Below, in pieces: positions 5,401-60,800 of a DNA stretch of 64,000 nucleotides. Source of the DNA: Owenia fusiformis (lineage: Eukaryota); the NCBI GenBank assembly GCA_903813345.2, contig CAIIXF020000001.1:15500001-15564000 (forward strand), given 5' to 3'. Within the stretch, counting starts at the first letter, position 1, and each line of letters starts with the position of its first letter. The notes under the pieces were generated by a model. It had not been told where the DNA came from, searched no databases, and worked only from the letters and a program-made list of their open reading frames with translations. Position numbers and translations under genes: made by a program.

Positions 5401-8400
5401 TATCCCTATATATGAAACATGATTTCAGAAATATAGCAATGATTATTTATTTAGTTAGGTTTCAATTCAGCTAGGCTAACTACATATTGTATGAAAATGT
5501 GTTGACCTATTTTTAATTTTTTAGATTAATTATATGATGATTGAACATGTATTAATTATTAACCTGCCGTCAAATGTTTCACATCAACTGAATTTTTGAG
5601 GTAGTTTGGCTCAATCAATGGATGATCAAATGGATCCGTGCTCTGAAGTCTAATTGTACCATTGGTAGCTTGATGGAGCAATGTGACAAGGACACTGATT
5701 CCAGTTTTTCCGTTCAGTTCCTCATCTGGGTATATTGTATTCCACACCTGAAATTGTATTGGAACAGTTCATTCCATAACTGAAGGTGCATTAAAATAGA
5801 CCATTATACAACTGAAAGTACATTGAAATAGACCATTGTATAACTGAAAATGCATTGAAGTAGACTATTGCAAAACTGAAAGCGCACTAAAATAGTCCAT
5901 TACATAACTTGAAAGTGCATTGAAGTAGACTATTGCATACTCGTAACTGAAAGTACACTAAACTAGTCCAATGCATAACTGAAAGTGCATTGAAGTAGAC
6001 CATTGCATACTCGTAACGGAAAGTACACTAAAATAGTCCATTGCATATCTGAAAGCATTGAAATAGGCAATTGCATAACTGAAAGTGCATTGAAGTAGAC
6101 TATTGCATAACTAAAAGTACACTAAAATAGTCCATTACAAAACTGAAAGTGCATTGAAATAGACCATTGCATAACTGAAAGTGCATTGCAGTAGACTATT
6201 GCATAACTGGAAGTACACTAAAATAGACCATTGCATAACTGAAAGTGCATTGAAGTAGAGTATTGCAAAACTGAAAGTACACTAAAATAGTCCATTACAT
6301 AACTTGAAAGTGCATTGAAATAGACCATTGCATAGCTGAAAGTGCATTGAGGTAGACTATCGCATAACTTAGAGTACACTAAAATAGTCCATTACATAAC
6401 TGAATGTGCATTTAAGTAGACTATTGCACAACTGAAAGCGAACTAAAATAGTCCATTACATTACTTGAAAGTGCATTGAAATAGGCCATTGCATAACTGA
6501 TATGGCATTGAAGTAGAGCATTGCATAACTGAAAGTATACTAAAATAGTCCATTAAATAACTGAATAAAGGACCCACGGTCCTGCGCTCACACAGTTTGG
6601 AACCTTCAGAGGAATGTATATCCTGACTTTCAAACAAAAATATTGATTTGGATTTGTAGTCTCGAACTTTGAGAAACTTAGATAGCACAGTTGTGTGACC
6701 TAGTTTGATGACCTTTGACCTTGAAAATTTTACTTATTCAGAGCTCAGTAAGGTCTTTTGTGATTAAGCTGACCAAAATTTATATCCAAAAATCAATTGC
6801 AAAAATCAACTTTTTTTACCTTTCGAAGGTCACTGAAGGTCAAGTGAAGGTCAAATCCTAAAACTAATGTCAAATGGCAACTTGTAGATGATTTTCAAAA
6901 AAAATGGTCAAATTGAAGCAAGTTGAAAAATAACTTATTTTTACTGTTTTTTTACGTCAAATATCTCAAAAACGGTAAAAATTTGATGCTGACATATATT
7001 GAGCAATATGTAAGGAATGCTTAAATCTAGTAATGATGTAATTCATTGCAAGAAATGATCAAGTAAAAGGCAAACTTTGAGAAACTTGTCAATCACAAAA
7101 CCTGCCATTGACTTTATACATGAGAAAGTTTCCTGAAAATGATGTAGTCCTACTTTTTGTCAAACACCAAAAACTGTAATTCCAAGAGCTTTGAAATCTT
7201 CAAAGGACATAACTTGCATATACAGCAATTAGTACAAGTTATTTGAAAGTTCTATACTTCAACAAAGTGTCTAGTATTTACAGAAAATTTGACTTTTTGA
7301 CGTCAAAATCAGCAATTTCTCGGAAACCGGGCGAACTTGGGAAATGGTGATGATAGGTCAAATAGGCATTATGGATATGCATAAAATGATATGATTCAAT
7401 CCGAATAGCAGTTTTAATTTGTGCGGCCAATGTTGACGGACGGACGGACGCCTGGTCGATCCAATAGGCTCACTGTGTGAGCCAAAAAGCATTGAAATAG
7501 ACCATTGCATAAATGGAAGTGAATTGAAGTAAACTATTGCATAACTGAAAGCGCACTAAAATAGTTCATTACATAACTGAAAGTGCATTGAAATAGATCA
7601 TTGCATAACTGAAAGTGCATTGAAGTAGACCATTGCATAACTAAAGTACATTGAAGTAGACTATTGCATAACTGAAAGTACAATAAAAAAAGTCCATTAC
7701 ATAACTAAAAGTGCATAAAAATAGACCATGCATTACTGAAAGTGCATTGACGCAGACTATTGCATAACTGGAAGTGCACTAAAAGTCCATTACATAACTG
7801 AAAGTACACTTAAATAGTCCATTACATATCTAAAAGTGCATTGGAATAGACCATTACATAACTAAAGTGTATTAAAGTAGACGATTGCATAATTGAAAGC
7901 GCACTAAAAGAGTCCATTACATAACTGAGAGTGCATTAAGATAAACCATAACATAACTGAAAGCCCCTTGATATACTCCATTACATAATTGAAAGTGCTT
8001 TTGAACATTGCATTTCATTCATAGCTGGTATTAATTTTGCACTGAAATAGCGGATTATACATAACTGAAAGTGCAATGAAACAGTCTGTTACATAACCTC
8101 AAAACCATGGAAATATTGCAATTCCATACCTGAAAGTACATTGACATATTGCATTTCATAGCCGACATTTCATTGAAACAGTTCATTCCATAACTGACTT
8201 CCATATTATATTTGAAGGCACCTTGAAATATATTTGAAGGCACCTTGAAATTTAAATTGATACAAAAGCTCCGTCGACGACTAGACCTATATGAGGCGTA
8301 CGATATTTTGCAAGCTATATTTTAGCAGTACCTCATCAGTATATCCCATATTGCCTTTTATATAATCCGTTCCTTTATCACTTCCCCATATTACTGATAA

Positions 8401-31200: not shown

Positions 31201-34200
31201 GCTTTTAGCAAAGTGCTTTGGCTTATCAAAGTGAGCTCTACAAGAATACATGTGTGAAGAGCTAATGATACCATTCATTTTAAGATGCTTGCTGTATATT
31301 ATTGTAAATACTAAAGATTTAGATCAGATAAATTGCTCAATATTGTAGTGCAGTTCAGAAGATCACTCTCATCTGTATATCTTATTTCAGGAGAGAACTG
31401 ATCTAAATCACCATGGTTACAAGTCCTGTCTTGTTGTGGTTACTGCTGACAGGTGGTTGAGAAGATATGACATGAACACTGGTAGAATGCTGGAAGAAGT
31501 CTACATTGGTCCTAATATTAAATTCAAGTAGGTTTGCAGTTGCACACATCAGCACAATACATGTACATGTATATCCTTTATACTATGTATGTATGTATGT
31601 ATACTAAAATGTATTCTCTCATATAAATGAGGCAATAAATATACAATACTAGCAATTTGATAGAATATGCAATTTTTGCAAACTCAACTGCCATGCTTTA
31701 CGGTCTCAACTCTAAATTATTTTTACATTTTTTGAGATTCAAGGATTGTTACAACTTGCAAGAGTATATTCGTCCTTTGGTTTTTTTTGTTTGATTCTGT
31801 CTTTAGAATTCCACATTAACGTTTAGATTAATCCATTTAATCTTTATATTGCTGCACTGTTGGCTATTATAATATCCTCTATACTATGCAATCTAGTAGG
31901 TTTGACAGATTTGGTTATTTCTTAAGTATTTCCATGGGATTTCTAGAGAGCCCATGATATTTCATTTGTTTGTGTATTACATCTGATATATAATACATTA
32001 CATCTAGGTATTTGGCATGGGACCGGGAGCAAGAGAGGTTGGTGATTAAGTCGACCCATAGCAATCTGTCCCAGGCTGAAAGGCAGGTAGGGAACACCTT
32101 CAGTGTAATGTTCATTTAGTGATTGCATTATATCAATGTAGTCATTAATAAAGAGGCTGGGTGGGGAGGGATGGAGGAATCAAAAGCTTTTTTACCACTT
32201 TTTTTGATTGTTTGATAACATTGTTTTTCTGACCAATTAGAAAATCAATGTCAATATATGGTTTAGGGATAAAACATTGGTGCCAATTCTATGGTTTATA
32301 TACAATGTATATAAAACAACTTTATTCATTTCTTCAGATAATTTTGTTTTATTAGATCAAGGCTTTCGACTTGTATCCCCAAGTCTTTTTCAAGATTTAA
32401 AAAATATAACAGCGAACATCGAAAGCCTTGATCTAATAAAAAAAATTCTCTGAAGAAATGAAAAAAGTTGTTTTAACATTGTAGGCTATTGGTTCTGTTG
32501 TGTAGAGATTTCAGTGTTATAATTCTACAATTAAATATTTGTTTAATAATGTTGATGCATGTTGTTGTATGGTGATATCATGGGCTTTCAACAGACTCTC
32601 TCTTGAAAGCCCTTGGTAATATTCAACATTATTGCAGGCAGGGGTGGTTAAGGATGTTCTCATGACCATGGGTGTCTTCCACATATTTCCCCTTGAATTC
32701 CTTGCAATGTTTCAAGTGAGAAAGTCGGTAAGTTACAAGTCAGAAGTTACTGGTGGGAAAGCTGGTAAGTTACAAGTCAGAGGTTACAGGTGGGAAAGTC
32801 GGTCAGTTACAAGTCAGAAGTTACTGGTGGGAAAGTTGGTAAGTTACAAGTCAGAAGTTACAGGTGGGAAAGTCGGTAAGTTACAAGTCAGAAGTTACTG
32901 GTGGGAAAAATGGGAAGTTACAAGTCAGAAGTTACAGGTGGGAAAGTCGGCCAGTTACAAGTCAGAAGTTACTTGTGGGAAAGTTGGTAAGTTACAAGTC
33001 AGAAGTTACAGGTGGGAAAGTCGGTAAGTTACAAGTCAGAAGTTACTGGTGGGAAAGTTGGTAAGTTACAAGTCAGAAGTTACTGGTGGGAAAGTTGGTA
33101 ACTTACAAGTCAGAAGTTACTGGTGGGAAAGTTAGGAAGTTACAAGTCAGAAGTTACTGGTGGGAAAGTTGGTAAGTTACAAGTCAGAAGTTACAGGTGG
33201 GAAAGTCGGTAAGTTACAAGTCAGAAGTTACTGGTGGGAAAGTTGGTAAGTTACAAGTCAGAAGTTACTGGTGGGAAAGTTGGTAACTTACAAGTCAGAA
33301 GTTCCTGGTGGGAAAGTTGGGAAGTTACAAGTCAGAAGTTACAGGTGGCAAAGTTGGGAAGTTACGAGTCAGAAGTTACTGGTGGGAAAGTTGGGAAGTT
33401 ACATGTCAGAAAGTTATAAATTAGTCACAAGTCAGGAACTGTTCATTTTATGAGACCAAAATGAATTATTATTCAGATATTAGTAATATCAAATTTTGCG
33501 GGTAATTCTTAATATATAACAACAGCGATGTCTTTAATCTTTTTCTGTGTTAGTTCTTGTTGAAAGTATGTGTAATATATTTTTTAGAAAATGTGTCAAT
33601 TGATGATAGGTCATTGTTCACACAAGTTACAGTTTACACACAGTTTATATATGCTAATGTCTTTTACATTTAGATATTTGGTAAAAGTATCACAGATGCG
33701 ATGCTTTTTGGTGGTCTCTTGTTGGTAATGTCAAAGTCGGATGTGATCAAGATTTACAGCTTTGATGACATTCTGGAGCAGGTATGTATTACACAATTGG
33801 TAAACCTTAAGTTGTTTAATGGTAGATGAATATGATTATTGTTTGACAAAGTATGCTGTTTCACTGCAGTGTTGCAATGCACTGATGCGCTTAAATGTCC
33901 CAAATTCCAAATTTACTTTTGGTCTGAATGCATATATCTATATTTTTACCACTTTGGATGGATAGGTTGCATTTACATTTTAGATTTTCAACAGGGTGGT
34001 GCTTGAGTACCTGGTTGTTCAAATGCTTTTAGAGATCACTGATATTATAGTAATGTCAATATCAGCATGTCTCATATTCTTTCAGTTTAAAGAGTTCAAT
34101 GCTCCATTAGGCAATGACAGTACCCATTATGAAGGTCATGCTGGGAGGCATCCACATGGTCTTCCAGTGAATGTAACAATAAAAGGTATTACATGATCCA

Positions 34201-38946: not shown

Positions 38947-39885
38947 AATTCTGCACAACATGGCAACATACTGCATTAGTCTGAAGTATGGCTCTTCCTT
39001 GAGACTGAAATTTACATGAAGAACAAAGCAGGTCAATTGGATTCAGTGAAAACAGTGCATCACATAATACACTGCAGTCACATGATGCAGCGTGCACAGA
39101 GCAAATGGTTATTATAAATGAGCTCAACATCTCAACAACAAGGTTAGTAGAATATTCCAATACATCTGCATAAACATCTGCTTAAGTATGTGAAGTTGTG
39201 AACACCTCTTAAATTGAACACTTTTTATAAGACTTCTATTTGGGCTCATTGATTTTCCAATGTCTAGCAGTCCCATGTAAATTAATGCAATTTTCTTTAG
39301 ATCAATTATAGACCGTTTTCATTAAGAGGTGAGCTCTATGAATCAAATTTAAAGAGCACACTTTTGCTATTAAAACTTTTTATCTGTACACATATAAGAT
39401 AGGAAAACTGGAATCTTATAGTGAATAGTGCAATCTGTAAATACTAGAATTTCTCTTCAGGTCTCAATACATCATTGGAAAGGTAGATTTATCAGGGTAA
39501 TGAATACTAAAGTGATGATGGGTCAAAAGCAAAACATGAATCTTTGAAATTTGTTAAGGCCTAATTAAATTGATATTGTGACCACTTGATGCATACATGT
39601 ACATGCATGTTGTATATCCTCGTCTGTTAATATCTTTGATGTTTATGAGATTTAAATCTCAAAAAGGTAGATAGCAAAGACATTGATTAAAGATCAAATT
39701 AGATACTACTTTAATGTATCAATACATCATTGGGAATGGTAGGTCTTTTTATTTCCAATCAGTGTGTATCACAACTCAAAAGCAATGTGCTGAATCCTCT
39801 CTTTTACAGAAAGTCTAATTTACTCAAGTCAATTGTGAAATGGGACATTCCAAAGGCAATGCTTCATGCATGACTCCTAATATAT

Positions 39886-40669
39886 CACACATCCTAGTTT
39901 TCTGCATGAGAAAAATGCAAATTCTGCGCAGAAATTCTGCATGAAAAAGCCAAATTCTGCACCAAATTCTGCATGAAATCTAAAATTCTGCACCAAATTC
40001 TGCACGGGGAAAAGTGAAATTTTGCGGTTCAAGTATGTGCAAAAAATGAAATTCTTGCTAAAATCAATAATTTTTTCCAAAAAATTAATAATTCAAAATT
40101 CTTGAACTCCACTCATGCTGCTTTCTTCAGCGATAATGGACAACTGCAGTAATAACACCAGATGCAATTTTAATCAATTAGCGACAAAATGCTCACTTGT
40201 GAACTATCACGAAATTCCAGATCAATATGCAGGGAATTCAGATGTCGTTTATTTATATATGACGAAGTAAAACGGAAGAAGAAGCATGATTTATTGCGTT
40301 AGAATACAAAAGAATACAATATTAGACATATTATTGCAAAACAATTACGAGGGACAGTCATCGGTTTCAAATTTCGTGATTATGTTAGACGCAGTCTTAC
40401 CTCTAAGTGCAAAGGCGGAAGTTCGAGAATTTAAAACAGATTTCAGATTTCCTCTTGAAAATCTGACAAAACACAAGTATCTGACAACAAACGAGCGGAG
40501 TCTTTGGGTGTTTAGGTGAGTGACAAATATGAGATGAGATGGTTGACTGGAAAAATCATGTTTTCCGCGAAATTCCGTGCCAAAACAAAAATTCTGCAAA
40601 AAAAATGAAAATGCAAATTTCTGCGGTTTTTCTGCGGCGACGCGGAATCACGGAATACTAGGATGAGTG
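39886..40669. mobile_element. MITE with CAC...GTG termini between the convergent DCAF17 and GPCR 3' ends
   Basis: CACACATCCTAGT / ACTAGGATGAGTG TIRs with ATATAT on both flanks; AAATTCTGC subterminal repeats. Confidence 0.8.
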
Positions 40670-40781
40670 ATATATATGATGGACTGTTTCCATATTCATG
40701 TTGCACAGGACAAATTTTTAAAATTTGTAACATCGCTATGCAAAAACTCATGGAGGTTGTCAACTAGATATAGTCAACATT

Positions 40782-43700
40782 TTAAATTTGTGTTGTTACC
40801 ATATGGTGCCTGCTTGCATATGGTGATCCATTAATTCTAGATCGGAGTCTTTGGCGTTTATGTTTATAACATCTACATATCAGTCTGTTTGGTAAGTGGC
40901 AAAGATTTTCACGAAATTCCTTGTTTACCAGGATGTACAATACAAAGTTTAGAGATGCATTCAACCGTAAGCACAAATTAGAAACAATGTGAAGGTATAT
41001 GGTTTTGTTATTATTCTTCATAGAGTCAATAAAACCAGTTGGATCTTGGAAGGAAGTTGGGAAAAAGAGCAAATCTTGAGCTCTCATAATGTCTGCAACT
41101 ACTCTTGGCATAACAAAACACAAAAACATAACTGCTACAGCTATGAAAAGTCTTGTTAATTTATCTTCATTCTTTGATGCTGTTGTAACACCAGTTCCCC
41201 TCATTTCGGCCCGCTTTTTGGAAGCTTTCTTTAATGAAACTAAAATTGCTATTGTCATCATAATCACTGATACCGTGGGCAGGATATGGAAAACCAATGG
41301 CTTGAAACATATCACATATATTTTCAAAAACATGGGAGAACCTCCTAACTTTGTGTATTTTTCTTCCACCCATCTTTCTTCACTGCACCAACTCTTAGAC
41401 CAGTAAGGCTCCACCATTAGAAATGAGGGAACAGATGAACCAAGACAAACTATTACCAAGAGAATCATTGAAATAGTAGTCCTGCGTATGGTACACAATA
41501 TCTTTGCTTTCATAGGTTTGCATACTATTACAAATCTGTTTGCTGTTAAGAGAACTATAAACCATATTGAAATATGAATCAATATTGATTCTATTTCTTC
41601 TATATATGGGTTAACCCAAGGAAGTACATGGACTGACTCACTGCCATGATTCAGTATCCAATTTCTTTTACCATAGTAAATGTTTTTGTAAAGTTCAAAA
41701 GTCAGATACCACAAACAAAAGCTTCCGTCACAAACAGAGACACCCTTTAGGATAACAATACTGGAATGAATCTGACTTGTGGATAGAACAAGAAAAGAGA
41801 GTACACTCCCTATCAGACCGAATAGACAAACAAAAAGTGAAGTCCAAAATCCGATGATGAATTCTACTTGTCTAGTAAATGTAGTGTAACCCTTATTAAA
41901 TGGAGGACAACAGAAAATGTTGCGCATGTTGTGCTGTAACATGCATGGCGTCGGAAGAAAATCAAATAACCATGGAGTCTTGAGCAGTGTACTTTTGGAG
42001 TTTTTTACCATACACTGTAATGTCTGGTTGAGCAGGGACCTTCCTTTTAATTCACAAGACATTGGCGGTGATGAAAATGGCCAGGGTGTCTCAACATATG
42101 TACTTGAATTTTGAACAGCACATGACAACCTAATGCTGCTACTGGAAGTTATTAAAATGCAATTCCCTGGTGGTGAGATATGTGGCCAGTGGGCTCTGAA
42201 TATTGAATACTGAGAATCATATTTCACATTGCACTTTAAGCTATGTGTTGCTCTAGAATTTCTATTTATCACACAGAATGCCTCGAGAAATGACATTGGC
42301 AATTTGTCGGGTATGTATGTTATGTTTGTTGGTCCTTCCATTATGTCACACATTAGCTTTCGCTTGGCAGCGACACATGTTGTAGAGGGAAATGGAAAGG
42401 GCCAATGAAATGCAACGACAGGTAATTCATACTTAGACTTTGAGAACTTTGTACCATTATAACAATATAGTGTTTGATTCTCATTGCCCAGCTCAAGTAT
42501 ACAAAGTGTAGGTTGATGTGAAGCAAATGGCCAAGGAATTACAGCAGATTTCAAATATGGCCAGTTGAGTTGATGATCTGAGGACACTTCATCTGTCTGG
42601 TTGTTTTGAATGAAGCATCTCAATGCTTTTAAACTTATGGCAATGCACTGATATGGAGAGAACTCAAATGGCCAATAATGTGCAATTGTTTTATTGCCAT
42701 GAGTATTTATGCAGTAAAAGAACACTTCATCACCAGTGGCCTTTGTAAATAAATTACACATTAAAGGTGAAAATAAAAAAGGCCATTTTACTGAAACTGT
42801 CCTGAACAACCATTTTGATGCCTCCAATCCAGTATGAGCAGTAATAGATTTATTTGACATTGTGTTCATGTAACAAGTGAGCTGATGTCTTGTATAATCC
42901 AGCACACATGCTGCTAATGGAAAGGGAAAGTTCCATTGAACTTCAAGTTTCACAAACAGCTCACCCTTTGATGATCTGTAACAAAGAATTGTTTGGTCAG
43001 TCTGTATATTATTACAGTATCTTAGAGCAAATGGAAAGGGCCATTTTAACTCAAATACATCAAATGACCATGTCAATGGGGTTGACTCTACCAAAGTAAC
43101 ATTACTCTTCAAGTAGCAATGTAGCATGCCTCTTCGTCTGTATATACAGTGATAGGGAGAGAATGGGAATGGCCATTGAAGTTGTGCATAGTGATGTTGA
43201 AACTGTCGCAGTATTGGACAATAAAGAGTTTTGTTCTGGCCTGGACGGCATCTAAGAGGAGAAAATGTGAAGGGCCAAATAATTGCCACAGTCCTGAAGG
43301 GCCAATTCAACTTTGCTAGTTTAGTAGATATTTTTGGATTCCTCTGAATATAGCAAGTCAAGCTAAAGGCATTATTATAGTCACAGGTTTTAAAAGAAAT
43401 GAATGAGAACGGCCACTTTAGTATTATACTACGAAATAATCCACCTCTTTGATAAGGGTAACAATACAGTGTCTCATTGTTATACATGCGACATAAAAAT
43501 GAAAATGGGAAAGGCCACTCAATAAGAACTAATTCATATGACCATTGAAGTGGAGGAACTACTTTTGAATCATTATTATAGAGTGTTTGGTGCTCATCTA
43601 TGCAGTAAATACTTTGGTTGTTTAACAAGAGGCACGAAGATGGTTTTAAGTTGAATGGCCACATTATCCAATTATACTGTACCGCTGTACCAATACGGCA

Positions 43701-45368
43701 GTGCAGTGTCTCATTGGCTCTGTACACTATGAAACACAAGCTGTATGAAAAGGGGAAAGGCCAAATAAGTTGTGTAAATCTTGTTGTCTGAAATGTGCCA
43801 TTCATATGCCTGTAACAATCAATTGCAGCTTCTGTGACTAGGCTACAATTAATAGGATCTGAAAAATCCTGACTTAACTTAATTCTAGGATCCATGCTAG
43901 AAGTCATATTACAAGTCATGGTAGTATTGTCAAAGTCACATATTTTAATTGGAAAACGTGAAATGATGACCTTTGGCAAAGTTATTGTTGTTGTTATGCT
44001 TGTGGGCTCGTTTGAAGGAGTTAATGAACTTGTTGCTTTATCCATATTCTGAGTTGTCAAACCATATGTTAACATTTCCAGAGTCATTGTACTCGGAGTT
44101 ACCATGTTTGGATCAGATGGTGATGACATGACCATTGTCCAATTAACATTTGTAAAGTTTTCATTATCTCTTCTCATGCTCTCTGTATGAACACCTGAGA
44201 GACCAGGGGAAGTGCTTATATTAACATACTTAACATGGTCATCTTCACTGCCGCTTGTCACAGGACCAGAGGAAGTGCTTGTATTGTTCATAACTCTGTC
44301 ATCTTCACTGTCCCTTGTCACAGGACCAGAGGGAGTGCTTGTATTGTTCGTAACACTGCCATCTTCACCGTTCCTTGTCACAGGACCAGAGGGAGTGCTT
44401 GTATTGTTCATTACATGGTCATCTTCACTGCCGCTTGTCACAGGACCAGAGGAAGTGCTTGTATTGTTCATAACTCTGTCATCTTCATCGTCCCTTGTCA
44501 CAGGACCAGAGGGAGTGCTTGTATTGTTCGTAACACTGCCATCTTCACCGTTCCTTGTCACAGGACCAGAGTGAGTGCTTGTATTGTTCATAACATGGTC
44601 ATCTTCACTGCCGCTTGTCACAGGACCAGAGGGAGTGCTTGTATTGTTCATAAAACTGCCATCTTCACTGTCCCATGTTACAGGACCAGGGGTAGTGCTT
44701 GTATTGTTCATAACATGTTCATATTCACTGCCACTTGTCACAGGACCAGAGGGAGTGCTTGTATTGTTCATAACATGGTCATCTTCACTGCCACTTGTCA
44801 CAGGACCAGAGGGAGTGCTTGTATTGTTCATAAAACTGCCATTTTCACTGTCCCATGTTGCAGGACCAGGGGTAGTGCTTGTATTGTTCATAACACTGCC
44901 ATATTCACTGTCCCATGTTACAGGACCAGGGATAGTGCTTGTATTGTTCATAACATGGTCATCTTCACTGCCGCTTGTCACAGGACCAGATTGAGTACTT
45001 GTATTGTTCATAACACTGCCATCTTCACTGTACCATGTTACAGGACCAGAGGGAGTGCTGGTATTGTTCATAACATGGTCATGTTCACTACCTCTTGTCA
45101 CATTATCTGAATGAACATCTGAGGGATGATGGGAAGTGCTTGTATGGTATACATTATCTAAAGTTTCTCCTGTGTGATTTCTTGCCTCATCCTGTTTTCT
45201 CTCATGAGGTGCTTCTGACAATTTGGTTTTATCATCATTCACTGGTTCTTTTTGAGGATTTGTTGTATCTAATAATGTTGGATGAGCTATAGGCGTTGTA
45301 GAACCTTTGCTTTCTACCACTGTTCCCAGCACTACTAACCAAGTCATGACTACAGTCAGTGATGCCAT
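40782..45368 (-). CDS. Class A (FMRFamide/sex-peptide-receptor-like) GPCR with a ~1160-aa ectodomain, intronless CDS, 1528 aa
   Basis: Signal peptide MASLTVVMTWLVVLGTVVES; seven hydrophobic segments in the last ~350 aa: GLIGSVLS (TM1), VSVCD (TM2), TANRFVIVCKP (TM3), HILP (TM5), FLCFVMP (TM6), LNASLNFVLY..VNKEFR (TM7/helix 8). A TTTCAG acceptor at ~45502 suggests an upstream non-coding exon. Confidence 0.93.
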   Translation of the reverse strand: MASLTVVMTWLVVLGTVVESKGSTTPIAHPTLLDTTNPQKEPVNDDKTKLSEAPHERKQDEARNHTGETLDNVYHTSTSHHPSDVHSDNVTRGSEHDHVMNNTSTPSGPVTWYSEDGSVMNNTSTQSGPVTSGSEDDHVMNNTSTIPGPVTWDSEYGSVMNNTSTTPGPATWDSENGSFMNNTSTPSGPVTSGSEDDHVMNNTSTPSGPVTSGSEYEHVMNNTSTTPGPVTWDSEDGSFMNNTSTPSGPVTSGSEDDHVMNNTSTHSGPVTRNGEDGSVTNNTSTPSGPVTRDDEDDRVMNNTSTSSGPVTSGSEDDHVMNNTSTPSGPVTRNGEDGSVTNNTSTPSGPVTRDSEDDRVMNNTSTSSGPVTSGSEDDHVKYVNISTSPGLSGVHTESMRRDNENFTNVNWTMVMSSPSDPNMVTPSTMTLEMLTYGLTTQNMDKATSSLTPSNEPTSITTTITLPKVIISRFPIKICDFDNTTMTCNMTSSMDPRIKLSQDFSDPINCSLVTEAAIDCYRHMNGTFQTTRFTQLIWPFPFSYSLCFIVYRANETLHCRIGTAVQYNWIMWPFNLKPSSCLLLNNQSIYCIDEHQTLYNNDSKVVPPLQWSYELVLIEWPFPFSFLCRMYNNETLYCYPYQRGGLFRSIILKWPFSFISFKTCDYNNAFSLTCYIQRNPKISTKLAKLNWPFRTVAIIWPFTFSPLRCRPGQNKTLYCPILRQFQHHYAQLQWPFPFSPYHCIYRRRGMLHCYLKSNVTLVESTPLTWSFDVFELKWPFPFALRYCNNIQTDQTILCYRSSKGELFVKLEVQWNFPFPLAACVLDYTRHQLTCYMNTMSNKSITAHTGLEASKWLFRTVSVKWPFLFSPLMCNLFTKATGDEVFFYCINTHGNKTIAHYWPFEFSPYQCIAISLKALRCFIQNNQTDEVSSDHQLNWPYLKSAVIPWPFASHQPTLCILELGNENQTLYCYNGTKFSKSKYELPVVAFHWPFPFPSTTCVAAKRKLMCDIMEGPTNITYIPDKLPMSFLEAFCVINRNSRATHSLKCNVKYDSQYSIFRAHWPHISPPGNCILITSSSSIRLSCAVQNSSTYVETPWPFSSPPMSCELKGRSLLNQTLQCMVKNSKSTLLKTPWLFDFLPTPCMLQHNMRNIFCCPPFNKGYTTFTRQVEFIIGFWTSLFVCLFGLIGSVLSFLVLSTSQIHSSIVILKGVSVCDGSFCLWYLTFELYKNIYYGKRNWILNHGSESVHVLPWVNPYIEEIESILIHISIWFIVLLTANRFVIVCKPMKAKILCTIRRTTISMILLVIVCLGSSVPSFLMVEPYWSKSWCSEERWVEEKYTKLGGSPMFLKIYVICFKPLVFHILPTVSVIMMTIAILVSLKKASKKRAEMRGTGVTTASKNEDKLTRLFIAVAVMFLCFVMPRVVADIMRAQDLLFFPTSFQDPTGFIDSMKNNNKTIYLHIVSNLCLRLNASLNFVLYILVNKEFRENLCHLPNRLICRCYKHKRQRLRSRINGSPYASRHHMVTTQI
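44207..45110 (-). repeat. Coding 60-bp (20-aa) tandem repeat, ~15 units, in the GPCR ectodomain
   Basis: NNTSTPSGPVTSGSEDDHVM-type units; GTATTGTTC recurs every 60 nt from 44281 to 45061. Confidence 0.97.
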
Positions 45369-48300
45369 ATTTTGTCAATGGACAATATTCTTCAGATCAA
45401 ACATCAAAGGTATGTTGTCTGCATGGCTTGATTGCTACCACATAATCTTTGATACCAAAAGCTTGATGTTTCTGTTTCTTTTTTGAGGTGGTCCTTTTGT
45501 CCTGAAACGTTTTTTAGATGTTTTCAATGCCTAATTTAATGTGTTATTATCATCATTCAATTTAGGTTTTTGGCCTATGCCCTAGATATAGAATGAAACT
45601 AATACCAGATTGAATATACCAGTATGACTGTTCTATCTGATTAGTCATTGTCTAGGAGGGCCTGTTCCCAATCAGATTTAGCAATTACTTGACCACTGGT
45701 TTAAACTCAACCTATAGCAACACTTTCTGATGATATATTAAAACTTTCAAATAAATTATTGTTTCCCAATGAGTTTATTTTGCTTCAAATAATATTCAGT
45801 TTTATCACAAGATTTTGAAAATTTGACTTTAGTGTCTTTCTGAACATGTTTGAGATACATGATTTGAAAAAAAGAACCGATTGATTCTTATATGATTTAA
45901 GTTATTTGTGATAAACATGTTATCAGTTGATATCAGATTAGAAATGTACAATATATTATTTATCTGATATTCATTAATATAAAAATGTATATTTCCAACT
46001 CATTAGTCCAAATGATATGCCTGTGTTCAAATCATATGGTATTTTAGACATGAAATTTCAAGAAGATTCTATAAGAAAAATAATTCTCTAAGACTACTTA
46101 CATTTAAGAAATATTAAATTGTCCTTTCCTGTTCAATTGTTTCATCCAGATAGAAAATATTGTGACAAGCAATAGGTGGATTAACATCTGTGTGTATAGT
46201 TGTTCATTTAATGTTATCTATTTATTTATTTTTAGCTCATAAATAATTAATATATATCTGATAGTGTGTATCTTGATGGGTGAGGTATGAGTGTGTGTTA
46301 TAACACCTGTAAAGTAATGTGAACAGTATGGGATTGTGCATACAAGCATACACCTACCTAGGAAATTAACGACACACACATACTTGTTTTTATTGTTTCA
46401 GGAGTTTTGAATTCATCGTCTGTGATGTGTGCATGTGCAAAATTAATAGACTTTGACATGAAGCCTCTTTTCTGTAATTATCGATGGTTCAAAACTCATT
46501 CAGTCATGTAGAAAGTGAATTAGCTGTCTTTTAAAATCAAAAATGATTAGAAGTTTCTCATTTTATTCCTTAGTTACATTCATATTGATGTTTTATCTAG
46601 TTTAGATAAAAAAAATGGTATTCTTGTGACCAGTTGAAAAATAATTTTTTTGCTTTCTTGCAATACTATTCCACTGAATGTACTTGTTGAGATTTGATCA
46701 ACTTGAGTTCTTCTGGGAAAGTGAGGATTTTGTACCTATTACCATGGTGACATATACAACATGGATGATGGTATCCCATTGCTAAATCATTAGTCAATGG
46801 TGTATATATGAATATGTGGTGTATTTTGGGAATGGATTAATGGAATGGGATTTCTGTATTGATCTTACAAACAGCTTTTCCATCCTGGTCCTGCTCCATG
46901 AAATTAAAGGAAAAGGATATTTTTATTACAGTATGGTATTAATATTTTAGCGTTTTCACTATTTTTCAGTTAATTCTTGACAAAACTGAGATTATTTTTT
47001 TAAATATTTTTAATCACCCTCATTATACACAAAATAGCAGAACAAAAGAATAGTTTTTTGTTCAAGCAATGTTTGGTGTTATCTGTCCAGTGGTGAATAC
47101 TGTATCACGTTATTCATAAATACAGTTAGTGATATTCATATTAGTTATATAAAACTCTACTACTTTTTTTATCCAATCTTGCATTTCATCTCCCAAAAGA
47201 TCTCTTCTACCAAATATATCCACTGACTTTCAAGAGAAGCCCATAAAATAACCAATCATTTAACAGGATATATTTGTATTTTGATGGATTGTCTGTTGTC
47301 TTTCACATTAGAGTATTGACCATACAGATGAAGTAGCACATTGTCAAATAATTAGTAACATCATGTTATTGCAATATCTGGAAAACATTCATTAATCAAT
47401 GTTTGTGGTGGAGATATCAAAGGAAGTTGCCTTGAGAATATATTGATCTCAATGCCACTTTTCAGCTTTTCAAACAATCGTATCCTTCTAGAAATCCCAT
47501 GACGCAATTGGACACATGATGTTTTTAACACATATAATTAAGTGGAAGATGTAGGATTTTCTTTCACAAGTCTGAATTAGATCATAGTTTATCACCTTTA
47601 GATTTTTATTTATTAATGATCACAAAGTAATAAGTGGTAGTACTGTGATACAGTAGTGGTGACATACATGTATTGTTATAGTCTCCAACTTTTTTGTGAA
47701 CGGCGTTCAGCATCCGGAAATTGGTGTTTTGCGTTAAGCAATCAGTGTCTGTAACAAATACCAGTTAGCGACATTTTGCATGATTTATGCCTTGTTTATT
47801 ATATTTACACGTATATTAATTAGAAAAACCAATTCTTTGCAGAAATTAGCTTGATTATGGATTAGGCATCAAATGATTTGTTGTAATGAATATCTGTTAC
47901 CAACATCAGTGCAATTGGCACATGGGATGAAATAATGGAATAAAAGTCTCTAGTATAATCTACATACAGTTTTCAAAATCATTTTGATTGTCATTTCTAA
48001 ATCATTTTTTAGGTTCCTGTAAATGGATCATGAAAATCTTCCATTCATCAGAATACTAAAATGGCTATAAATTGAAAATATTAGATTTAAATCTCGGAGT
48101 AATTGTATCTTCGCCATATATCCCACGCTTAGCCTCACAATCAATAAATTCTTGGAACTTTGATTGGGAACTATTGATGTTGATGTAACACTATACAATT
48201 TTTTACAACAGCCTTTCTAGTATTTTACTGATTAACTCTTTCTCCAGTTTTGTTCATTTACTTGTTAATAGCTTTACATTAATTAAGGAGGCTAGCAGAA

Positions 48301-50584: not shown

Positions 50585-52178
50585 TCTACAACCTATAAGA
50601 CCATATAGAAATCAGCTTAGACTAATCTGAACAGCACAGTTATCATGAAAGTTTTTCAGCAGACATGACCAGCCTACTTTTTATGTGGAAATCAAATTCA
50701 AGTTATTTAGATAATAATGGAAAAGTTAGAGATGCTGGTATCATACATATAGGTAATTCCTCTCCCAACTGATGGGATAATCATCAACATTGAAAAGTAG
50801 TTCACCTGCAGTAGCTGCATTGATGCTCATTCTTTTATCAAAAGATGTAATTTGTGTTGCTAGGTGCTTATTTGAGCTGGAGAGGCTAAATTATTATTCA
50901 TTAACGACTATAAGAGGTAGTTATTTAGGCATAATGGAACTCTACATTTTCAGCCTGCTTAATAGAATTGTTCTTGTGAAATTAGAAATCATTTAACCTG
51001 TCTGATCTGAACATAAAAATACATAGAGTTCACCTGCTTGAGTTCTATACCATAGAATTGCCTCTATTATTGCTAAGCTGGTGAATTTGTTTCAGTTTAA
51101 TTAAAGGTTCTGTGAAAAAGAATAACCACAGTTGTTGTTTTTTATTTTATTAATTAAAACATGTTTTTGAATAAAAAAGAGGAATTTTAATCAAACTTCA
51201 TAAAATATTTACTTTCATGGTCTTACAGCATTCAGATACCAAGATTTACTTTGTATTGTGTTGGTTGCTATAATCAGGATGCACATGGTAGATGCTAACT
51301 ATGGTTCATTGATTATTCTGGAAAGAGAACTGCAAATTATTTTATTGAAGTATAGTTATTTTACATGCAATGTTCGTCAAAGCTTAACAGTCTACCAGAG
51401 AGCTACTTGAGTTAACAATAACTGGGAACAGTTAGAACTGTAACGGGCATTTGAGACAAATGCAAAGTAAAGCCTTGGATAAAGGTAAAGTAAGAGTGAG
51501 ATTAATTTAAGAAGCTAGTAATATTATCTGAGATTGTTTCCTCTTGTGCCTAGGTGAGTAAATGTCAAAGGAGTTGATCAGTTCCAGGGTGTTATGGAAA
51601 AGATCTCACAAATACTTCCAGTTTTGTTGTATTTGTAGGATTTATTCAACTGCTGACTGTGGCTGATTGTTCTTAATTAGTAATGTTCTTTTGTCTTGTT
51701 TCATGAAAAATTCTCGTCTTTATATTTGGAATCAGAAATACATTTTGGGACAGAAGTGGCAAAATTCATGTTAATTTTTTCGTTACAAAAGTTAACATCA
51801 GAATTGTTTTTTTTTTTTTGACATACAAAAATTAGGTAAACAAAATATTTCAAAAACTCTCATGCCAATAAAATAATGTTTTATGACTTTGTACTTTCAG
51901 ATTGTGGCCAGAATTTATGCGGCACTAGATGACACACACATGATATACAGCCCACTTTAGAGAACAACAAAAGAACATTAGATCTGTGTACTGGTGTAAT
52001 AACTCAACTTGGTCTAATTTATGTCCAATATGAGAACTTTTAGCAAATTGGAAGTGTTGATCCTAGATCAGTAAGAGGACATAACTTTTACCATCGGAAC
52101 ATCATATTCATAAAAGCTCATAATACAGATTAGATATCAGACAGGATTGCTGATTAACAGTAAGGTCCCTTAAGGATA

Positions 52179-52676
52179 ATGGAAATGAATTACCTCCGGA
52201 ATGACAGCTCTGTGCATAAAAATGTTTATTTCCCAAAGGCCTATGGGGACAGGCCCATAGGTAGTAAACATGACACTGATGGATACACCGATTCGGACGA
52301 TCGACCAAGCGCAATTGGTATTGGAATAACATTTGCAGTGTTGGTCTCCCTTTTCCTCTTGTTCTTCCTGTTTCTGGACCTCAGGAAACCGTTTAACAGA
52401 ATAGCCGCCCGGTTCTGCCCAGGCTATGTTTCACGAAAGGACAGCTATCAGTCGGTTCATAGTTATCTCTCATTTGGAAGTGATTCTTTGAATGGAGATG
52501 TGCCAAGGAGACTTTCAACATTTCAAACCATTGAGCGACGTGTTTCAGAATTTGTCGGCATCAAAGAAGGGGATCGTCCTTCTAATAGACGCTACAGCAA
52601 AATAACAGATGATTCTTTGGTAGACTCAAAGATGCAAATGAAACAGGAAAAGCGACGCTTCAGTTGCAATGTATAA
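52179..52676 (+). CDS. Uncharacterised 165-aa single-pass membrane protein
   Basis: ATG-initiated ORF, more GC-rich than its flanks; one TM segment AIGIGITFAVLVSLFLLFFLFL followed by basic residues; plausible 5'UTR acceptor TTTCAG at 51895-51900. Confidence 0.75.
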   Translation: MEMNYLRNDSSVHKNVYFPKAYGDRPIGSKHDTDGYTDSDDRPSAIGIGITFAVLVSLFLLFFLFLDLRKPFNRIAARFCPGYVSRKDSYQSVHSYLSFGSDSLNGDVPRRLSTFQTIERRVSEFVGIKEGDRPSNRRYSKITDDSLVDSKMQMKQEKRRFSCNV

Positions 52677-55334: not shown

Positions 55335-56440
55335 GGTGAAAGGCCAATATGGTTGACCCTTGACATATTGATGCAAAAGAGTTGGGCCATTGTGGTTCAC
55401 ATTACATGAATAAGGAAAGGCCACTATTCAGTAAGGCCAATATGGTTGACACTGACAAAATTGAGTAAGGCCAATATGGTTGACAATGACACAATATTGA
55501 GTAAGGCCAATAAGGTTTACACTGACACAATTGAGTAAGGCCAATATGGTTGAGACTGACACAATTGAGTAAGGCCAATAAGGTTTCCACTAACACAACT
55601 GAGTAAGGCCAATATGGTTGACACTGACACAAATGAGTAAGGCCAATATGGTTGACATTGACACAATATTAAGTAAGGCCAGTATGGTTGACACTGACAC
55701 AATTGAGTAAGGCCAATATGGTTGACACTGACACGATTAAGTAAGGCCAGTATGGTTGACGCTGACACAATATTGAGTAAGGCCAGTATGGTTGACGCTG
55801 ACACAATATTGAGTAAGGCCAGTATGGTTGACACACACAATTGAGTAAGGTCAAAATTGTTGACACTGACACAATTGAGTAAGGCCAATATGCTTGACAC
55901 TGACACAATTGAGTAAGGTACATATGGTTGAGACTGACACAATTGAGTAAGGCCAGTATGGTTGACACTGACACAATTGAGTAAGGCCAATATGGTTGAC
56001 ACTGACACAATTGAGGAAGGCCAGTATGGTTGACACTGACACAATTGAGTAAGGCCAATATGGTTGAGACTGACACAATTGAGTAAGGCCAATATGGTTG
56101 AGACTGACACAATTGAGTAAGGCCAATATGGTTGACACTGACACAATTGAGTAAGGCCAGTATGGTTGACGCTGACACAATATTGAGTAAGGCCAGTATG
56201 GTTGACACACACAATTGAGTAAGGCCAAAATAGTTGACACTGACACAATTGAGTAAGGCCAATATGGTTGACACTGACACAATTGAGTAAGGCCAGTATG
56301 GTTGACACTGACACAATATTGAGTATTAGGCCAATATGGTTGGCATTGACACAATTGAGTGAGGCCAATATGATTCACAGTGACACAGTGGAAACATTGA
56401 TATTAATGAGTTATGATGGCCAATATGGTTCACAACATGG
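55335..56440. repeat. 34-bp minisatellite GAGTAAGGCCAATATGGTTGACACTGACACAATT (~28 units; 31- and 36-bp variants)
   Basis: Regular units at 55430-56380; a degenerate terminal unit overlaps the MGAT4-like stop region. Confidence 0.97.
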
Positions 56441-57862
56441 CCTAGCAGAGTCAGGAACTAACTGAATTTTAAAAACAATTTCTCTGAGCACAACCATGAC
56501 GTCATGTTTAGTAATTACTCGAATCCGTACAGCTTTAATTTTCCCAATACGACTACCTAGAGAACCCTCAGCAATACCACGACTGTTAAATTGCCCAATT
56601 TGGAAATAATTGTCTTTTAAGGGCAACATTTTATTGATTGAGTTTGTCTTTTTATTGACTTGATTAAGATGTAATGGCAGTTGCACATCCACATAGGTAT
56701 CCTGTTTAAAAATGTCCCTAGGATATTTGTAATGTTCACACCGGAGGAAATATTCCTCAAAAATAACTGGTGTTTTGAATATAAATTCAATAAAGTCACC
56801 TTGTTGTGGGTGAAAGGCATGGAAATATCCAGCGTTTATGTAAGTTGCTTCTAAGGTATGATCCTTATAGGCTCTCATACTGGTCTTTATCACAGCTGGA
56901 GGATTGATATAAACAGGAACATTCATCCAAGGCCAATTTTCATTCGCTATTGGAAAGTTATGTTCGGTCTTTATTAGTTTACCATTCAATGTTTCAATTG
57001 GGTTGAATAAGGCGGGATAGTGTGAGATTGAAGAAAATCCCAGTTCCTGTAAACAATGAGACCCCAAGGGAGTCTCTGATAGGCAACGGGGATGTCGTTT
57101 GTCGGTATAGTGCTGTAAAAGTCCCTCTAGTGAAGCAACGAGCACAGTGGGAGTTGAAACAAGATTTTTTATGATTGATGACAAGTCGTGAGTCTTATAA
57201 AGGTTACCAATTAGACCAACACTTGAGAATTTCAGATTGATCCACAAATTGGTATTGACCTCAAAAATAAACTTTGATATGTTTCCTATAAAGTTTCGGG
57301 ATGCCAGTACATTATCACTGAGTTTTAGATAATATTTTCCTCTGGTATGTGCAAATGTCATCATTATTATCTCTTGAAGGATATCTCTCGATTTATGCTT
57401 AATATCTCCTGTAAGCTGAATCCCATTGATGATATTCTGCATCAGCTTAATTTCTAGGAGTCCGGATTTTATTGGATCTTCAAAGGTCATTACAAGATCA
57501 TCATGTAAAGTTTTAACAAATTTAGCTTGCCCATCTATTACAACAATTATGATAACTTCAGCTTGTTCCTCTGCAGACAATCCTTCAATTAGTGAACTGA
57601 GAGTTTTCCTAATGGATTCATCTCCATGTTGCTGGCTGACGGATATTCCTATGACGTATGTTGCCTCTGATTTTCCTGTATTTTCACTAGCAGGGTTTAA
57701 GTTATGGGCTAAAGAGTCCATCAATTGCTCTGCCTCTTGTGTACCACTGTAGGCAGGTGAACATTCATTGTCTGATAACATCAATCGTAATCTCATCCAC
57801 AGAAGGTGCATCATGGACGCTATGAGAATGATCTTCCACCATTTCACATACATTGCTTTCAT
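56411..57862 (-). CDS. MGAT4/GnT-IV family (GT54) protein with C-terminal lectin-like domain, intronless CDS, ~483 aa
   Basis: First ATG at 57862 (the track ORF starts at TTG 57877). Type II TM WWKIILIASMMHLLW; VIGI...TLSSLI.GLS.EE..VIIIV; GKYY; W..LKFSSVGLIG.LYK..DL; NPPA.IKTS..AY..HTLE..Y...P..GD.I.F.F..P. Confidence 0.88.
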   Translation of the reverse strand: MKAMYVKWWKIILIASMMHLLWMRLRLMLSDNECSPAYSGTQEAEQLMDSLAHNLNPASENTGKSEATYVIGISVSQQHGDESIRKTLSSLIEGLSAEEQAEVIIIVVIDGQAKFVKTLHDDLVMTFEDPIKSGLLEIKLMQNIINGIQLTGDIKHKSRDILQEIIMMTFAHTRGKYYLKLSDNVLASRNFIGNISKFIFEVNTNLWINLKFSSVGLIGNLYKTHDLSSIIKNLVSTPTVLVASLEGLLQHYTDKRHPRCLSETPLGSHCLQELGFSSISHYPALFNPIETLNGKLIKTEHNFPIANENWPWMNVPVYINPPAVIKTSMRAYKDHTLEATYINAGYFHAFHPQQGDFIEFIFKTPVIFEEYFLRCEHYKYPRDIFKQDTYVDVQLPLHLNQVNKKTNSINKMLPLKDNYFQIGQFNSRGIAEGSLGSRIGKIKAVRIRVITKHDVMVVLREIVFKIQLVPDSARPCCEPYWPS

Positions 57863-60800
57863 TTTTATTTCATTCAAGGCTGGTATGAATTGGACCCGTT
57901 AACACATATAAACATAGATTTCATATACATTGTAATACTATCTCATTTAGATGTTTTAAATTAATGAATAGGGTGTAATTTAACAACAGGTATCTTGCCT
58001 CTGGCATTTCATTAATGTTTATACTTATTCCATATACATGGTGATGTTAATTTTATTTTTAATTTTGATTTTGATTGGTATGAGATCTAAAGGGGAATTA
58101 AGTGAGGCAGCAAAAATGGAAACGGGATTTTATTTAACAAAGACTAATTTTAAAAATGGACAAATAGTTCTGTGATTAACATGATCACTATTTGAAAAGG
58201 TTACCTTTCTCTATGTATTTATAAACTGATCAAATTGTGTCAAAAAAATAAATTAAATTTGGCAGTTAAGCTAATAAGATTACTTGCATCTTTAACAATA
58301 CTAAATAACAGAATAATAAACACTGATAATCTGCAGATGAATTGTCCTACAAAAGCTATTATATTACCAGTTCAACACTCAACAAAAACAAGATAAATTA
58401 GATAGTGTCATCCACCACTGACTTCGCCTGTAAACAATACCATTTATAACCTGAGGATATTGCACAGAATAAATAATTCATGTCTAAAAACTTCTTGTAG
58501 TAATTAATCGTTTTGTGGTAGTTCCAGTATTCTGCTTGTGACATGTTCATGCTGTGCAACTCTGCCCTTTTATGTCATCTTGTTAACACAGCTAATGAAG
58601 ATGGATAGTTCTAAAGCTAGAATGTTTTTATTGCAAGAAAGCAATACTTTCATATTGGTACAACAAAACTCTGCACATGGCAGTAATGACAATTTTCATA
58701 TCAATGGTTTCCTGGCATCATTTTACGCAGAGATGCAATTGGATTTTATTCTTGAAAATCATCTATAGACTTTTTTAGCATTACTTTTCTATGTAGTATT
58801 TTTATATTTCCAAAAGAAATTCTGTTATCATTTCTAACAAAATTAAGTTTTCTATAAAAAAAACATCATTTTCAAGATTTTTGGAAAACTACAACTTATG
58901 AAGCGTAAAATATAAAAGTGTCTTTCATTTTCAATAATCTGAAATTTATGATTCTCTATCAGGCTTAGCCATGATGAAAGATATGTACAAAATAAATGCA
59001 TTCAAATCCCTTGAGTAAAATGATAAATGACCTTCTCTAATCTTTCAAGACTTTTATTGTTTCTTCATAATTCTGTAAAATCCCTCTTAAGAAAAACACA
59101 AGATAATATACATGTTTATTATGATTTACTTCTACCTTTATTACATTACAGACAATATGAAAGATCCCGGCAAATTTCATTTATGTAGCGATTGCTCTGT
59201 CAATGACCAGCTCAATTCATTAATGTTAAAACAATTTTTTCATCCTACCAAGGAATTAGTGTTCAATTGTCAACAATTGTGAAAGCGCAAGGTTAATTTC
59301 ATGAAGGTGTTACTTATGTTATGCTTGGAAAAAAATCATTCAAATCATTGATGGCAAATCAATCTTTTGAAATTATGTTATTAATACAAGAATGGCATCC
59401 AAAATGTGATTGTTTTTCCACTAAATGTTAACATTTGAACACCAACCCTAATAGTCCTACAGTAATATTCCCAGTGAGGGCAAGTGTATGTACACTGTTA
59501 TTCACAACAGTTCCTGGATTAATTTATTGGGCATTAACCAAGATTTACTCAGTTCATTTACAAGTTTCACTAATCAATGAAGCCAAATGGAAAACACTAA
59601 TAGCAGAAATAAATAGCTCGGAGTGATGGCCAGATAACGCAACTGGATTTAAATCAAAAGTGGTATCTTATACCAGGTATTTACAATTCAGCAACTATCG
59701 TGTTGTTTCCCATACCATCTCAATATACAGGGTGTCTACTAAATAAGCACTTTCCCTTCAAAGTCATTCATGCGAATGTCTGTACTTTGTTACTTTAAGA
59801 GAGGATTTCAGTCCCCATTGAATACAATAGCCCTATCCTCATATTTCATTGGTCTTTGATTGACATAAATTTCTTCATTTTATCATCCCTGATTGGTCAA
59901 AAAGTATACGGTATACATGTACGATCATGTGGCTAAGAATCGGAATTGGCAAATCAAAATTATGTAAATATGCTTCCCTGTTTACTTTGGCTACCTAGAA
60001 CTTTTAGCTAAAGCTCTTTGTTATTGAAATTATCCATTTCAATGTATTTTAAGATCTTTACAATAATCAGTATATATGACTTAAGGGTTTGGGGAGCCTA
60101 CATAGTGAAGAACCTGTATATTGAAATCTCACTCTCCATTGTCTCTCAACTACTGTAAATTCTTATCTCATACTTTAATTTGCTATAATTTATTTCTTAA
60201 TACATATCTGATGATACAATATCTCATCTTGAATAATATGTTTACCATATCATGAAAAAGGGGGTCTTAGTTTTATATCTTATTTTGAAGCTCCCAAGCA
60301 TTTTTGCAATTCAGTAATTTACCTCAGTTTCTCAAGGGTGGCAGTGTTTTGAAGATTTCTTTATTTAGCACCTTTCCCACAAACATTCAACCAATGTTTG
60401 CTCCTTTGCCACATTTTAAAGTAGTTTCCTCATATTTCAACTCATTCAGTAAGAAATTCAATAATGGTGGATTATACATTGTTGCACTTAAATCCAAATA
60501 TTGTTCAGGATGTAATGAAAATGTGCATTCATTTTGAATGCATTTGTCAGAATAACTGAACCTAGTCAATCAATGTTTGGCTTCATGCTATCACTTACTG
60601 TAAATTGCTTTAATTTGGCGCAACTTTTGGCGGCTGGGAAAAATTTTGAAATTTTGGCTGCTATTTAATTTGGCGAATTGATCATTAAATCAATTGTATT
60701 ACTCACTTCACAGCTCGCCACCAATAACACAATTTTATCTTTTCTGCCATCGGATTGTTTTATCTAAACAAGCAGGGACTCTATAGATCTTCGAAAATAG

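Follow-up and report, generated by a model that had tools for sequence, protein, structure and literature searches.

Which protein carries a repeat that resembles no described domain, and what does the repeat build there? This question was raised by a stretch of 64,000 nucleotides (nt) from Owenia fusiformis, an early-branching annelid; the whole stretch is called the window below. An earlier note, made from the letters alone, had pointed to a repeat of Trp-Pro-Phe (WPF) and two cysteines at positions 41901-43965. These coordinates correspond to amino acids (aa) ~469-1156 of an open reading frame (ORF) that runs on the minus strand from 40782 to 45368 and is an intronless, complete coding sequence of 1528 aa plus stop (protein P0001). 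Two facts go beyond the earlier note: the repeat is read from the minus strand, and it is the membrane-proximal ectodomain of a class A G-protein-coupled receptor (GPCR) with its seven-transmembrane (7TM) domain. As a whole, the best explanation, to which we give a probability of about 0.6, is that a new, lineage-restricted, disulfide-stapled module has given an FMRFamide-receptor-like GPCR a large ectodomain.

The repeat and the receptor that carries it

The ORF has an in-frame stop two codons 5' of its first Met and stays open for 4.6 kb within DNA of 34-39% G+C. It is the longest frame of the window, followed by frames of 495 aa and 303 aa, the latter antisense to the repeat array. From the N-terminus, the protein is composed of a probable signal peptide, a Ser/Thr-rich part with tandem repeats, two degenerate units, 16 WPF units, the sequence CCPPFNK and the 7TM domain (Table 1). 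In this way, ~1165 extracellular residues precede the first transmembrane helix (TM1), and aa 1-22 are the sole hydrophobic segment outside the 7TM part. The N-terminal part is thus a type I ectodomain of the secretory pathway. The mucin-like array lies inside a region rich in T, S, N and P (aa 23-470; T 16.5%, S 15.6%, P 8.3%), and its 60-nt units show 85-92% likeness at the DNA level. By its tandem Ser/Thr/Pro-rich repeats this part is a mucin-like (PTS) domain, with putative O-glycosylation.

Between aa 527 and 1165 we found 16 units of the form W-P-F-x-F-x(3-4)-C-x(9-15)-C, which make up eight modules of ~80 aa. The exact WPF is present in 13 units, and 15 begin with Trp, unit A7 having LPM in its place. 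Eight to ten residues separate the Trp from the first Cys, and 9-15 the first Cys from the second. Two more two-Cys units, which have no Trp, are located 5' of the WPF units and bring the total to 18. In 2000 shuffles of the region, WPF appeared 0.11 times on average (maximum 2) against 13 in the real sequence, and the full motif likewise 0.11 times (maximum 2) against 15. Furthermore, when each pair of units was scored with a hidden Markov model (HMM) built from the other seven, all eight pairs reached 16.6-62.6 bits, the best of 200 shuffles of any pair being 14.3 bits. A chance origin of the WPF repeat is excluded.

The eight pairs measure 73-86 aa each, and their alignment has an invariant Pro, an invariant Trp and four invariant Cys. 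Across the first five pairs the linker lengths alternate between 13-20 and 25-30 aa, and linker Trp residues are found at W609, W689, W767, W853 and W936. The turn between the two Cys often has an N-x-T sequon two residues before L-x-C; in total, there are 14 N-x-S/T sequons in aa 527-1165 and 52 across the whole ectodomain. At the DNA level, Tandem Repeats Finder reported no array in 41874-43965, and the matches within the region are limited to 15-32 nt with 62-93% identity, mostly at the spot that codes for WPFPF. These data agree with the ~16-18 copies counted in the earlier note, with the extra Trp that it described in five linkers, and with its view that the repeats had faded from the DNA. 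As for the dimers that it proposed, the alternation of the linkers in the first five pairs argues for them, at a shorter length than the 85-95 aa given there.

The 7TM domain passes the Pfam cut-offs of two families, namely 7TM_GPCR_Srw (PF10324; 56.7 bits against a cut-off of 22.2, E 3.1e-15, model positions 3-312 of 319) and 7tm_1 (PF00001; 43.5 bits against 30.5, E 3.6e-11). The 7TM domain of a paralog, P0004 (described below), likewise passes the Pfam cut-off. Among solved sequences, GPR139 comes nearest (E 3.3e-5), and in the Atlas the nearest clusters comprise putative FMRFamide receptors and Srw-type GPCRs (0.96-0.97). In the window protein the DRY motif, present in P0004, is replaced by NRF, with Arg3.50 kept, and NPxxY is replaced by NFVLY; the N-F-x-x-Y form is common to P0004 and is typical of the FMRFamide-receptor/Srw/GPR139 group. 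Cys3.25 is absent, since 25 positions before Arg3.50 there is an Asn here and a Ser in P0004, and extracellular loop 2 (ECL2) contains a single Cys in each protein (C1328 here, C464 in P0004). It should be noted that the disulfide between TM3 and ECL2 is absent from many class A receptors, so its loss does not tell against membership. Judged by its sequence, the 7TM part belongs to the FMRFamide-receptor/Srw/GPR139 group, of which it is a divergent but otherwise ordinary member.

Relatives and predicted fold of the module

We searched all 1,835,955,588 protein representatives with a profile built from the eight modules, and four proteins reached the threshold of E<=0.001. Two of them, P0002 and P0003, are identical to parts of the 1528-aa protein, i.e. 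they belong to this same gene. The other two, P0004 (688 aa) and P0005 (251 aa), are both entered as 'unnamed protein product, partial [Owenia fusiformis]' and are paralogs at other loci, their contigs differing in length from that of this gene. The layout of P0004 consists of S/T-rich tandem repeats, seven units, CCPPFNK and 7TM, with 33% identity over 491 aa, and at this identity the W, P, F and both Cys are retained. Word-index homolog searches with the ectodomain, with the last module plus 7TM and with the module profile returned only fragments of the gene itself; they overlooked P0004 and P0005 too, so they are weak. In the 64-kb window, an HMM scan of the six frames placed modules in this ORF only and revealed no tandem paralog.

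The public protein collection covers the gene in two partial pieces only, aa 513-908 in P0002 and aa 1010-1528 in P0003. Neither contains the N-terminal 512 aa, with the signal peptide and the mucin-like array, or aa 909-1009, and the existing public gene model appears to be fragmented.

The searches for a described domain were carried out with the modules and with the whole ectodomain. None of the eight modules matched Pfam at E<=10 apart from a chance-level row for YdjM (E 0.2, one module of the eight), and the ectodomain as a whole matched no Pfam family. Against the PDB sequences, the module profile gave a best E of 0.63 and the 696-aa region gave no match at E<=1, and an Atlas search with aa 520-1160 yielded no usable match. 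Several sub-threshold Pfam rows in other parts of the proteins were taken as chance: Bflower_3 on the mucin repeats (19.5 bits against 34), Cytochrom_B_N_2 on TM1, TctB on P0004 and DUF716 on P0005. In the literature, no paper naming a WPF module was found, supplements being outside the coverage. The match for 'WPFPF' was unrelated, and among the papers on a WPF repeat, motif or domain, those with a protein named in title or abstract treat bromodomains, whose WPF is a helical shelf that we take to be unrelated to this repeat. Among the papers listed on GPCRs of Owenia fusiformis, titles and abstract openings do not treat this receptor, and the available parts of PMC11589774 and PMC11730519 contain no mention of such an ectodomain.

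The structure of module D3 (aa 689-766) was predicted with AlphaFold2, using the eight modules as the alignment. The best model had a predicted local distance difference test score (pLDDT) of 86.9 and a predicted template modelling score (pTM) of 0.67, and all five models ranged between 82.6 and 86.9 in pLDDT. Strands are formed by residues 3-9, 26-33, 36-43, 53-55 and 60-66. In the model, WPFxFSP forms a loop and not a strand. The loop closes with a short helical turn, after which the first Cys opens one strand of a hairpin; the second Cys is in the hairpin's next strand. In the best explanation, a compact beta domain of ~80 aa would be built from two units of ~35-45 aa, each contributing a strand, the WPFxFSP loop and a hairpin with one Cys on each of its strands. 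This prediction agrees with the disulfide-stapled beta-hairpins proposed in the earlier note. In a model of D3 and D4 together (five-row alignment), both halves repeated the strand pattern, and the structural matches covered residues 1-81 or 82-164, never both. Since the matches span one module at a time, beads on a string are tentatively favoured over a closed propeller, one of the two forms, rod or propeller, that the earlier note had suggested for the array; the two-module model is a weak one.

Could the module be a very divergent copy of a known extracellular beta domain, missed by the searches, such as an Ig-like domain, a CS/sHSP-like sandwich or a known Cys-stapled repeat? The best structural matches of D3 in the PDB were small heat-shock proteins (sHSP) and CS domains, with an E of 0.1 and a TM-score of 0.34, and Foldseek gave no PDB match at E<=0.001; in BFVD the best E was 0.21. 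A known domain in disguise seems quite unlikely to us. The best reading is that the repeat is a previously undescribed, lineage-restricted, disulfide-stapled extracellular module, with three known loci in what is apparently a single species. The earlier note had called the repeat unrecognised, and Pfam, the PDB sequences and the fold searches gave no significant match to a described repeat. It had also named a lack of conservation in any other genome as a point against its reading, and here a qualification applies: no other genome was found to show the repeat, the relatives being Owenia fusiformis paralogs only.

Constraint on the gene and a possible mode of action

The functionality of the gene was evaluated through sequence variation and RNA reads. 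Run X1, of unrecorded kind, has an even depth of ~11-16 across the ORF and the intergenic flank, and it is therefore probably DNA of another individual and gives no evidence of expression. Comparison of the X1 contigs with the window showed 15 synonymous and 12 non-synonymous changes among the 27 differences listed within the ORF. With 21% of the sites being synonymous, this excess has a binomial p of 1e-4 (0.005 if 30% is assumed), and the repeat region alone has a ratio of 10:6 among the listed differences (p 4e-4). No stop arises from any of the listed differences, and the only indel listed (three bases, after 44016) keeps the frame. The excess among the listed variants indicates that the ORF is under constraint. 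Together with the W, P, F and both Cys kept in P0004, it bears out the selection at the protein level that the earlier note had proposed.

As regards the coding Ser/Thr-rich part, the indel of the X1 contigs after 44016 is an insertion of GTT. In addition, at 45052-45096, in the mucin-like array, a joint of the X1 contigs steps back 45 nt, with 15 different letters between. These length differences suggest a copy-number or unit polymorphism of the mucin-like array.

Three raw RNA runs were consulted, of which 6-12% each was read, and in these fractions no RNA reads fell on the upstream flank 45584-46500. If the ORF were a non-working gene, i.e. a decaying duplicate or a chance frame whose public models are split for that reason, the very sparse RNA reads, the annotation as two partial pieces only and the changed DRY motif would be expected. 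Nevertheless, the frame stays open for 4.6 kb in DNA of 34-39% G+C, where the next frames have 495 aa and 303 aa (antisense), the synonymous excess comes without any stop among the listed variants and with an indel in frame, and the protein has a signal peptide and all the seven-helix hallmarks covered by Pfam. A non-working gene is consequently highly improbable.

The eight modules and the two degenerate units form the membrane-proximal ectodomain, with the mucin-like array as a distal cap, and this ectodomain is probably heavily glycosylated. The disulfides would be intra-unit, from the first Cys to the second, because each unit keeps two Cys, the degenerate units do so even after the loss of WPF, and the number of units in P0004 is odd (seven). 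The array may be a stiff rod of glycosylated beads and bind an extracellular macromolecule or the matrix, or bear load. Its partner would be large and extracellular, as opposed to a small peptide that enters the 7TM pocket, and the signal would pass through the conserved CCPPFNK hinge. Each protein has an odd number of Cys in its ectodomain (37 here, 15 in P0004), and the surplus one is in the CC of CCPPFNK. The extra hinge Cys probably bonds the lone ECL2 Cys and so replaces the missing TM3-ECL2 disulfide. Such a bond would explain the odd count, the missing Cys3.25 and the single ECL2 Cys, and would tie the last module rigidly to the helix bundle. A complex prediction of aa 1087-1160 with aa 1161-1528 gave a score of 0.02 against a mark of 0.34, in a run without controls and with an uncertain fold of the partner, and it weighs neither for nor against docking or the hinge bond.

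In the most far-reaching version of this proposal, the ~80-aa WPF module is a new fold born in the oweniid annelid lineage and grafted on a peptide-type class A receptor. The result would be an adhesion-GPCR-like sensor of macromolecules or force, covalently linked to ECL2 via the CCPPFNK Cys that replaces the lost TM3-ECL2 disulfide. The odds are clearly against this version in full.

Another possibility is that the array binds nothing specific and is a passive glycosylated spacer or tether, the protein being an adhesion-type mechanosensor or a non-signalling surface protein without G-protein coupling. The position of the mucin-like array (distal) with respect to the WPF modules (membrane-proximal), the 52 N-glycan sequons of the ectodomain and the NRF of this copy would suit such a role, and the number of units varies between the paralogs (16 and 7), as in a spacer. 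A spacer accounts less well for the W, P, F and loop geometry kept between paralogs at 33% identity, and P0004 keeps DRY, with Arg3.50 kept in both proteins. A purely passive role seems unlikely to us.

Turning back to the new disulfide-stapled module as the source of the large ectodomain, several results weigh against it. Outside one species, no relative of the module was found in the 1,835,955,588 representatives, and its conservation is that between paralogs alone. Within a type, i.e. the first or the second unit of a pair, the cores resemble each other no more (0.299 and 0.257) than they do between types (0.279), the observed difference being reached by 2563 of 5000 permutations, so the pairing rests on the linker lengths and the fold model. 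The two-module model is weak (pLDDT 66.5, pTM 0.49), and the arrangement that it gives between modules is tentative. In P0005, the second unit has WPFPF and the first Cys and lacks the second Cys within the usual 9-15 residues; this unit may have degenerated, reflect an error of the gene model or carry a free thiol. With NRF and NFVLY, the G-protein coupling of this copy may be altered or lost. Finally, the synonymous/non-synonymous count covers the listed variants, besides which there are 38 further differences, and the RNA depth over the ORF in the three runs has a mean of at most 1.3 per 234-nt bin, with mixed strands.

Comparison with known receptors, and other features of the window

Few class A GPCRs have a large modular ectodomain. 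They are mainly those of the LGR and relaxin types, in which a rhodopsin-type 7TM domain follows a long repeat-built ectodomain and a Cys-containing hinge. The likeness to our protein is one of plan only. The LRR and LDLa domains of those receptors are absent here (Pfam, whole protein at E<=1 and modules alone), and the repeat is a two-Cys beta module rather than a leucine-rich solenoid. With adhesion GPCRs, the protein shares a mucin-like region and tandem extracellular modules on a 7TM domain, and possibly a role as tether or force sensor. However, its 7TM domain is of the 7tm_1/Srw and not of the secretin/adhesion type, and GAIN/GPS is absent (Pfam, whole protein at E<=1). Compared with the FMRFamide-receptor/Srw/GPR139-like GPCRs, the 7TM domain is alike, as both Pfam cut-offs and the best solved relative indicate, although Cys3.25 is missing and NRF stands for DRY. 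The main difference is in the N-terminus: the Atlas clusters of this group average 322-397 aa, with short N-termini, against ~1165 extracellular residues here.

The modules themselves recall EGF, Sushi/CCP, TSP1 and fibronectin type I units, which are also short, tandem, Cys-stapled, beta-rich, glycosylated units on animal surface proteins. They differ from these in having one Cys pair per unit and an invariant WPFxF loop. None of the eight modules matched EGF, Sushi, TSP1 or other Cys-repeat families of Pfam at E<=10, and none of these families appeared among the fold matches. A GPCR with a modular ectodomain is thus a known plan, and the module from which this one is built is new: a peptide-receptor-like 7TM domain has acquired ~700 residues of a module that neither the domain databases nor the solved structures explain. 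If the fold and the link between ectodomain and ECL2 are true, the module would be a compact new disulfide-stapled beta scaffold and the receptor a natural case of conversion from a small ligand to the sensing of large or tethered ligands. It would also mark a lineage-specific invention among the receptors of an early-branching annelid. This significance is bounded by how narrowly the module is distributed, at three loci of apparently a single species.

Table 1. Coordinates of the receptor gene, its parts and the other features located in the window.
Feature	Position	Strand	Basis or remark
Complete intronless coding sequence, 1528 aa + stop	40782-45368	-	Open frame
Probable signal peptide, aa 1-22	45303-45368	-	Hydropathy 1.82 for aa 1-19; cleavage site read by eye from the sequence
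Mucin-like array, 14.5 x 60-nt (20-aa) unit	44231-45102	-	Tandem Repeats Finder; NNTST..SGPVT motif
Two degenerate two-Cys units, aa 470-526	43791-43961	-	C477-C486, C508-C518; weak HMM domain at ORF positions 474-527 (numbered 2 ahead of P0001), i-Evalue 6.6
WPF module D1 (units A1+B1), aa 527-608	43545-43790	-	37.2 bits leave-one-out
WPF module D2, aa 609-688, linker Trp W609 first	43305-43544	-	43.7 bits leave-one-out
WPF module D3, aa 689-766	43071-43304	-	62.6 bits leave-one-out; AlphaFold2 pLDDT 86.9
WPF module D4, aa 767-852	42813-43070	-	41.5 bits leave-one-out
WPF module D5, aa 853-935	42564-42812	-	49.8 bits leave-one-out
WPF module D6, aa 936-1013	42330-42563	-	39.4 bits leave-one-out
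WPF module D7, aa 1014-1086, most degenerate, LPM for WPF in first unit	42111-42329	-	16.6 bits against 9.1 for the best shuffle
WPF module D8, aa 1087-1165, nearest the membrane	41874-42110	-	35.4 bits leave-one-out
Juxtamembrane CCPPFNK, aa 1153-1159	41892-41912	-	Identical in paralog P0004; has the one unpaired ectodomain Cys
Class A 7TM domain, aa 1177-1489	40902-41840	-	Pfam, hydropathy
Basic cytoplasmic tail with three Cys (1490, 1498, 1500)	40785-40901	-	Sequence
MGAT4-like frame, 495 aa, apparently intronless	56411-57898	-	MGAT4_cons E 1.1e-31, MGAT4A_C E 1.5e-29
Non-coding tandem array, 34 nt x 28.1	55422-56387		Tandem repeat; abuts the MGAT4-like frame
Non-coding tandem array, 37 nt x 18.9	32716-33416		Coincides with GC-skew spike of 0.32 at 32-34 kb
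Two non-coding arrays of a 32-nt unit	5748-6565, 7489-7998		Tandem repeat
Non-coding tandem array, 203 nt x 2.8	3434-3996		Tandem repeat

Regarding the rest of the window, an open frame of 170 aa at 52164-52676 on the plus strand, contains one strongly hydrophobic stretch and has no match in Pfam at E<=0.01; either it is part of a gene for a membrane protein, as one of its exons, or it is perhaps due to chance. The frame at 56411-57898 is, by its Pfam matches, an N-acetylglucosaminyltransferase IV-like gene. Directly 3' of the stop codon of the receptor gene, at 39734-40669, there is a high-copy element with an X1 depth of 149-1114, compared with ~11-16 in the gene. RNA reads pile up on this element, and many reads run into unrelated sequence at 39884-39896 and at 40669-40670; the element is probably a transposon or another dispersed repeat.

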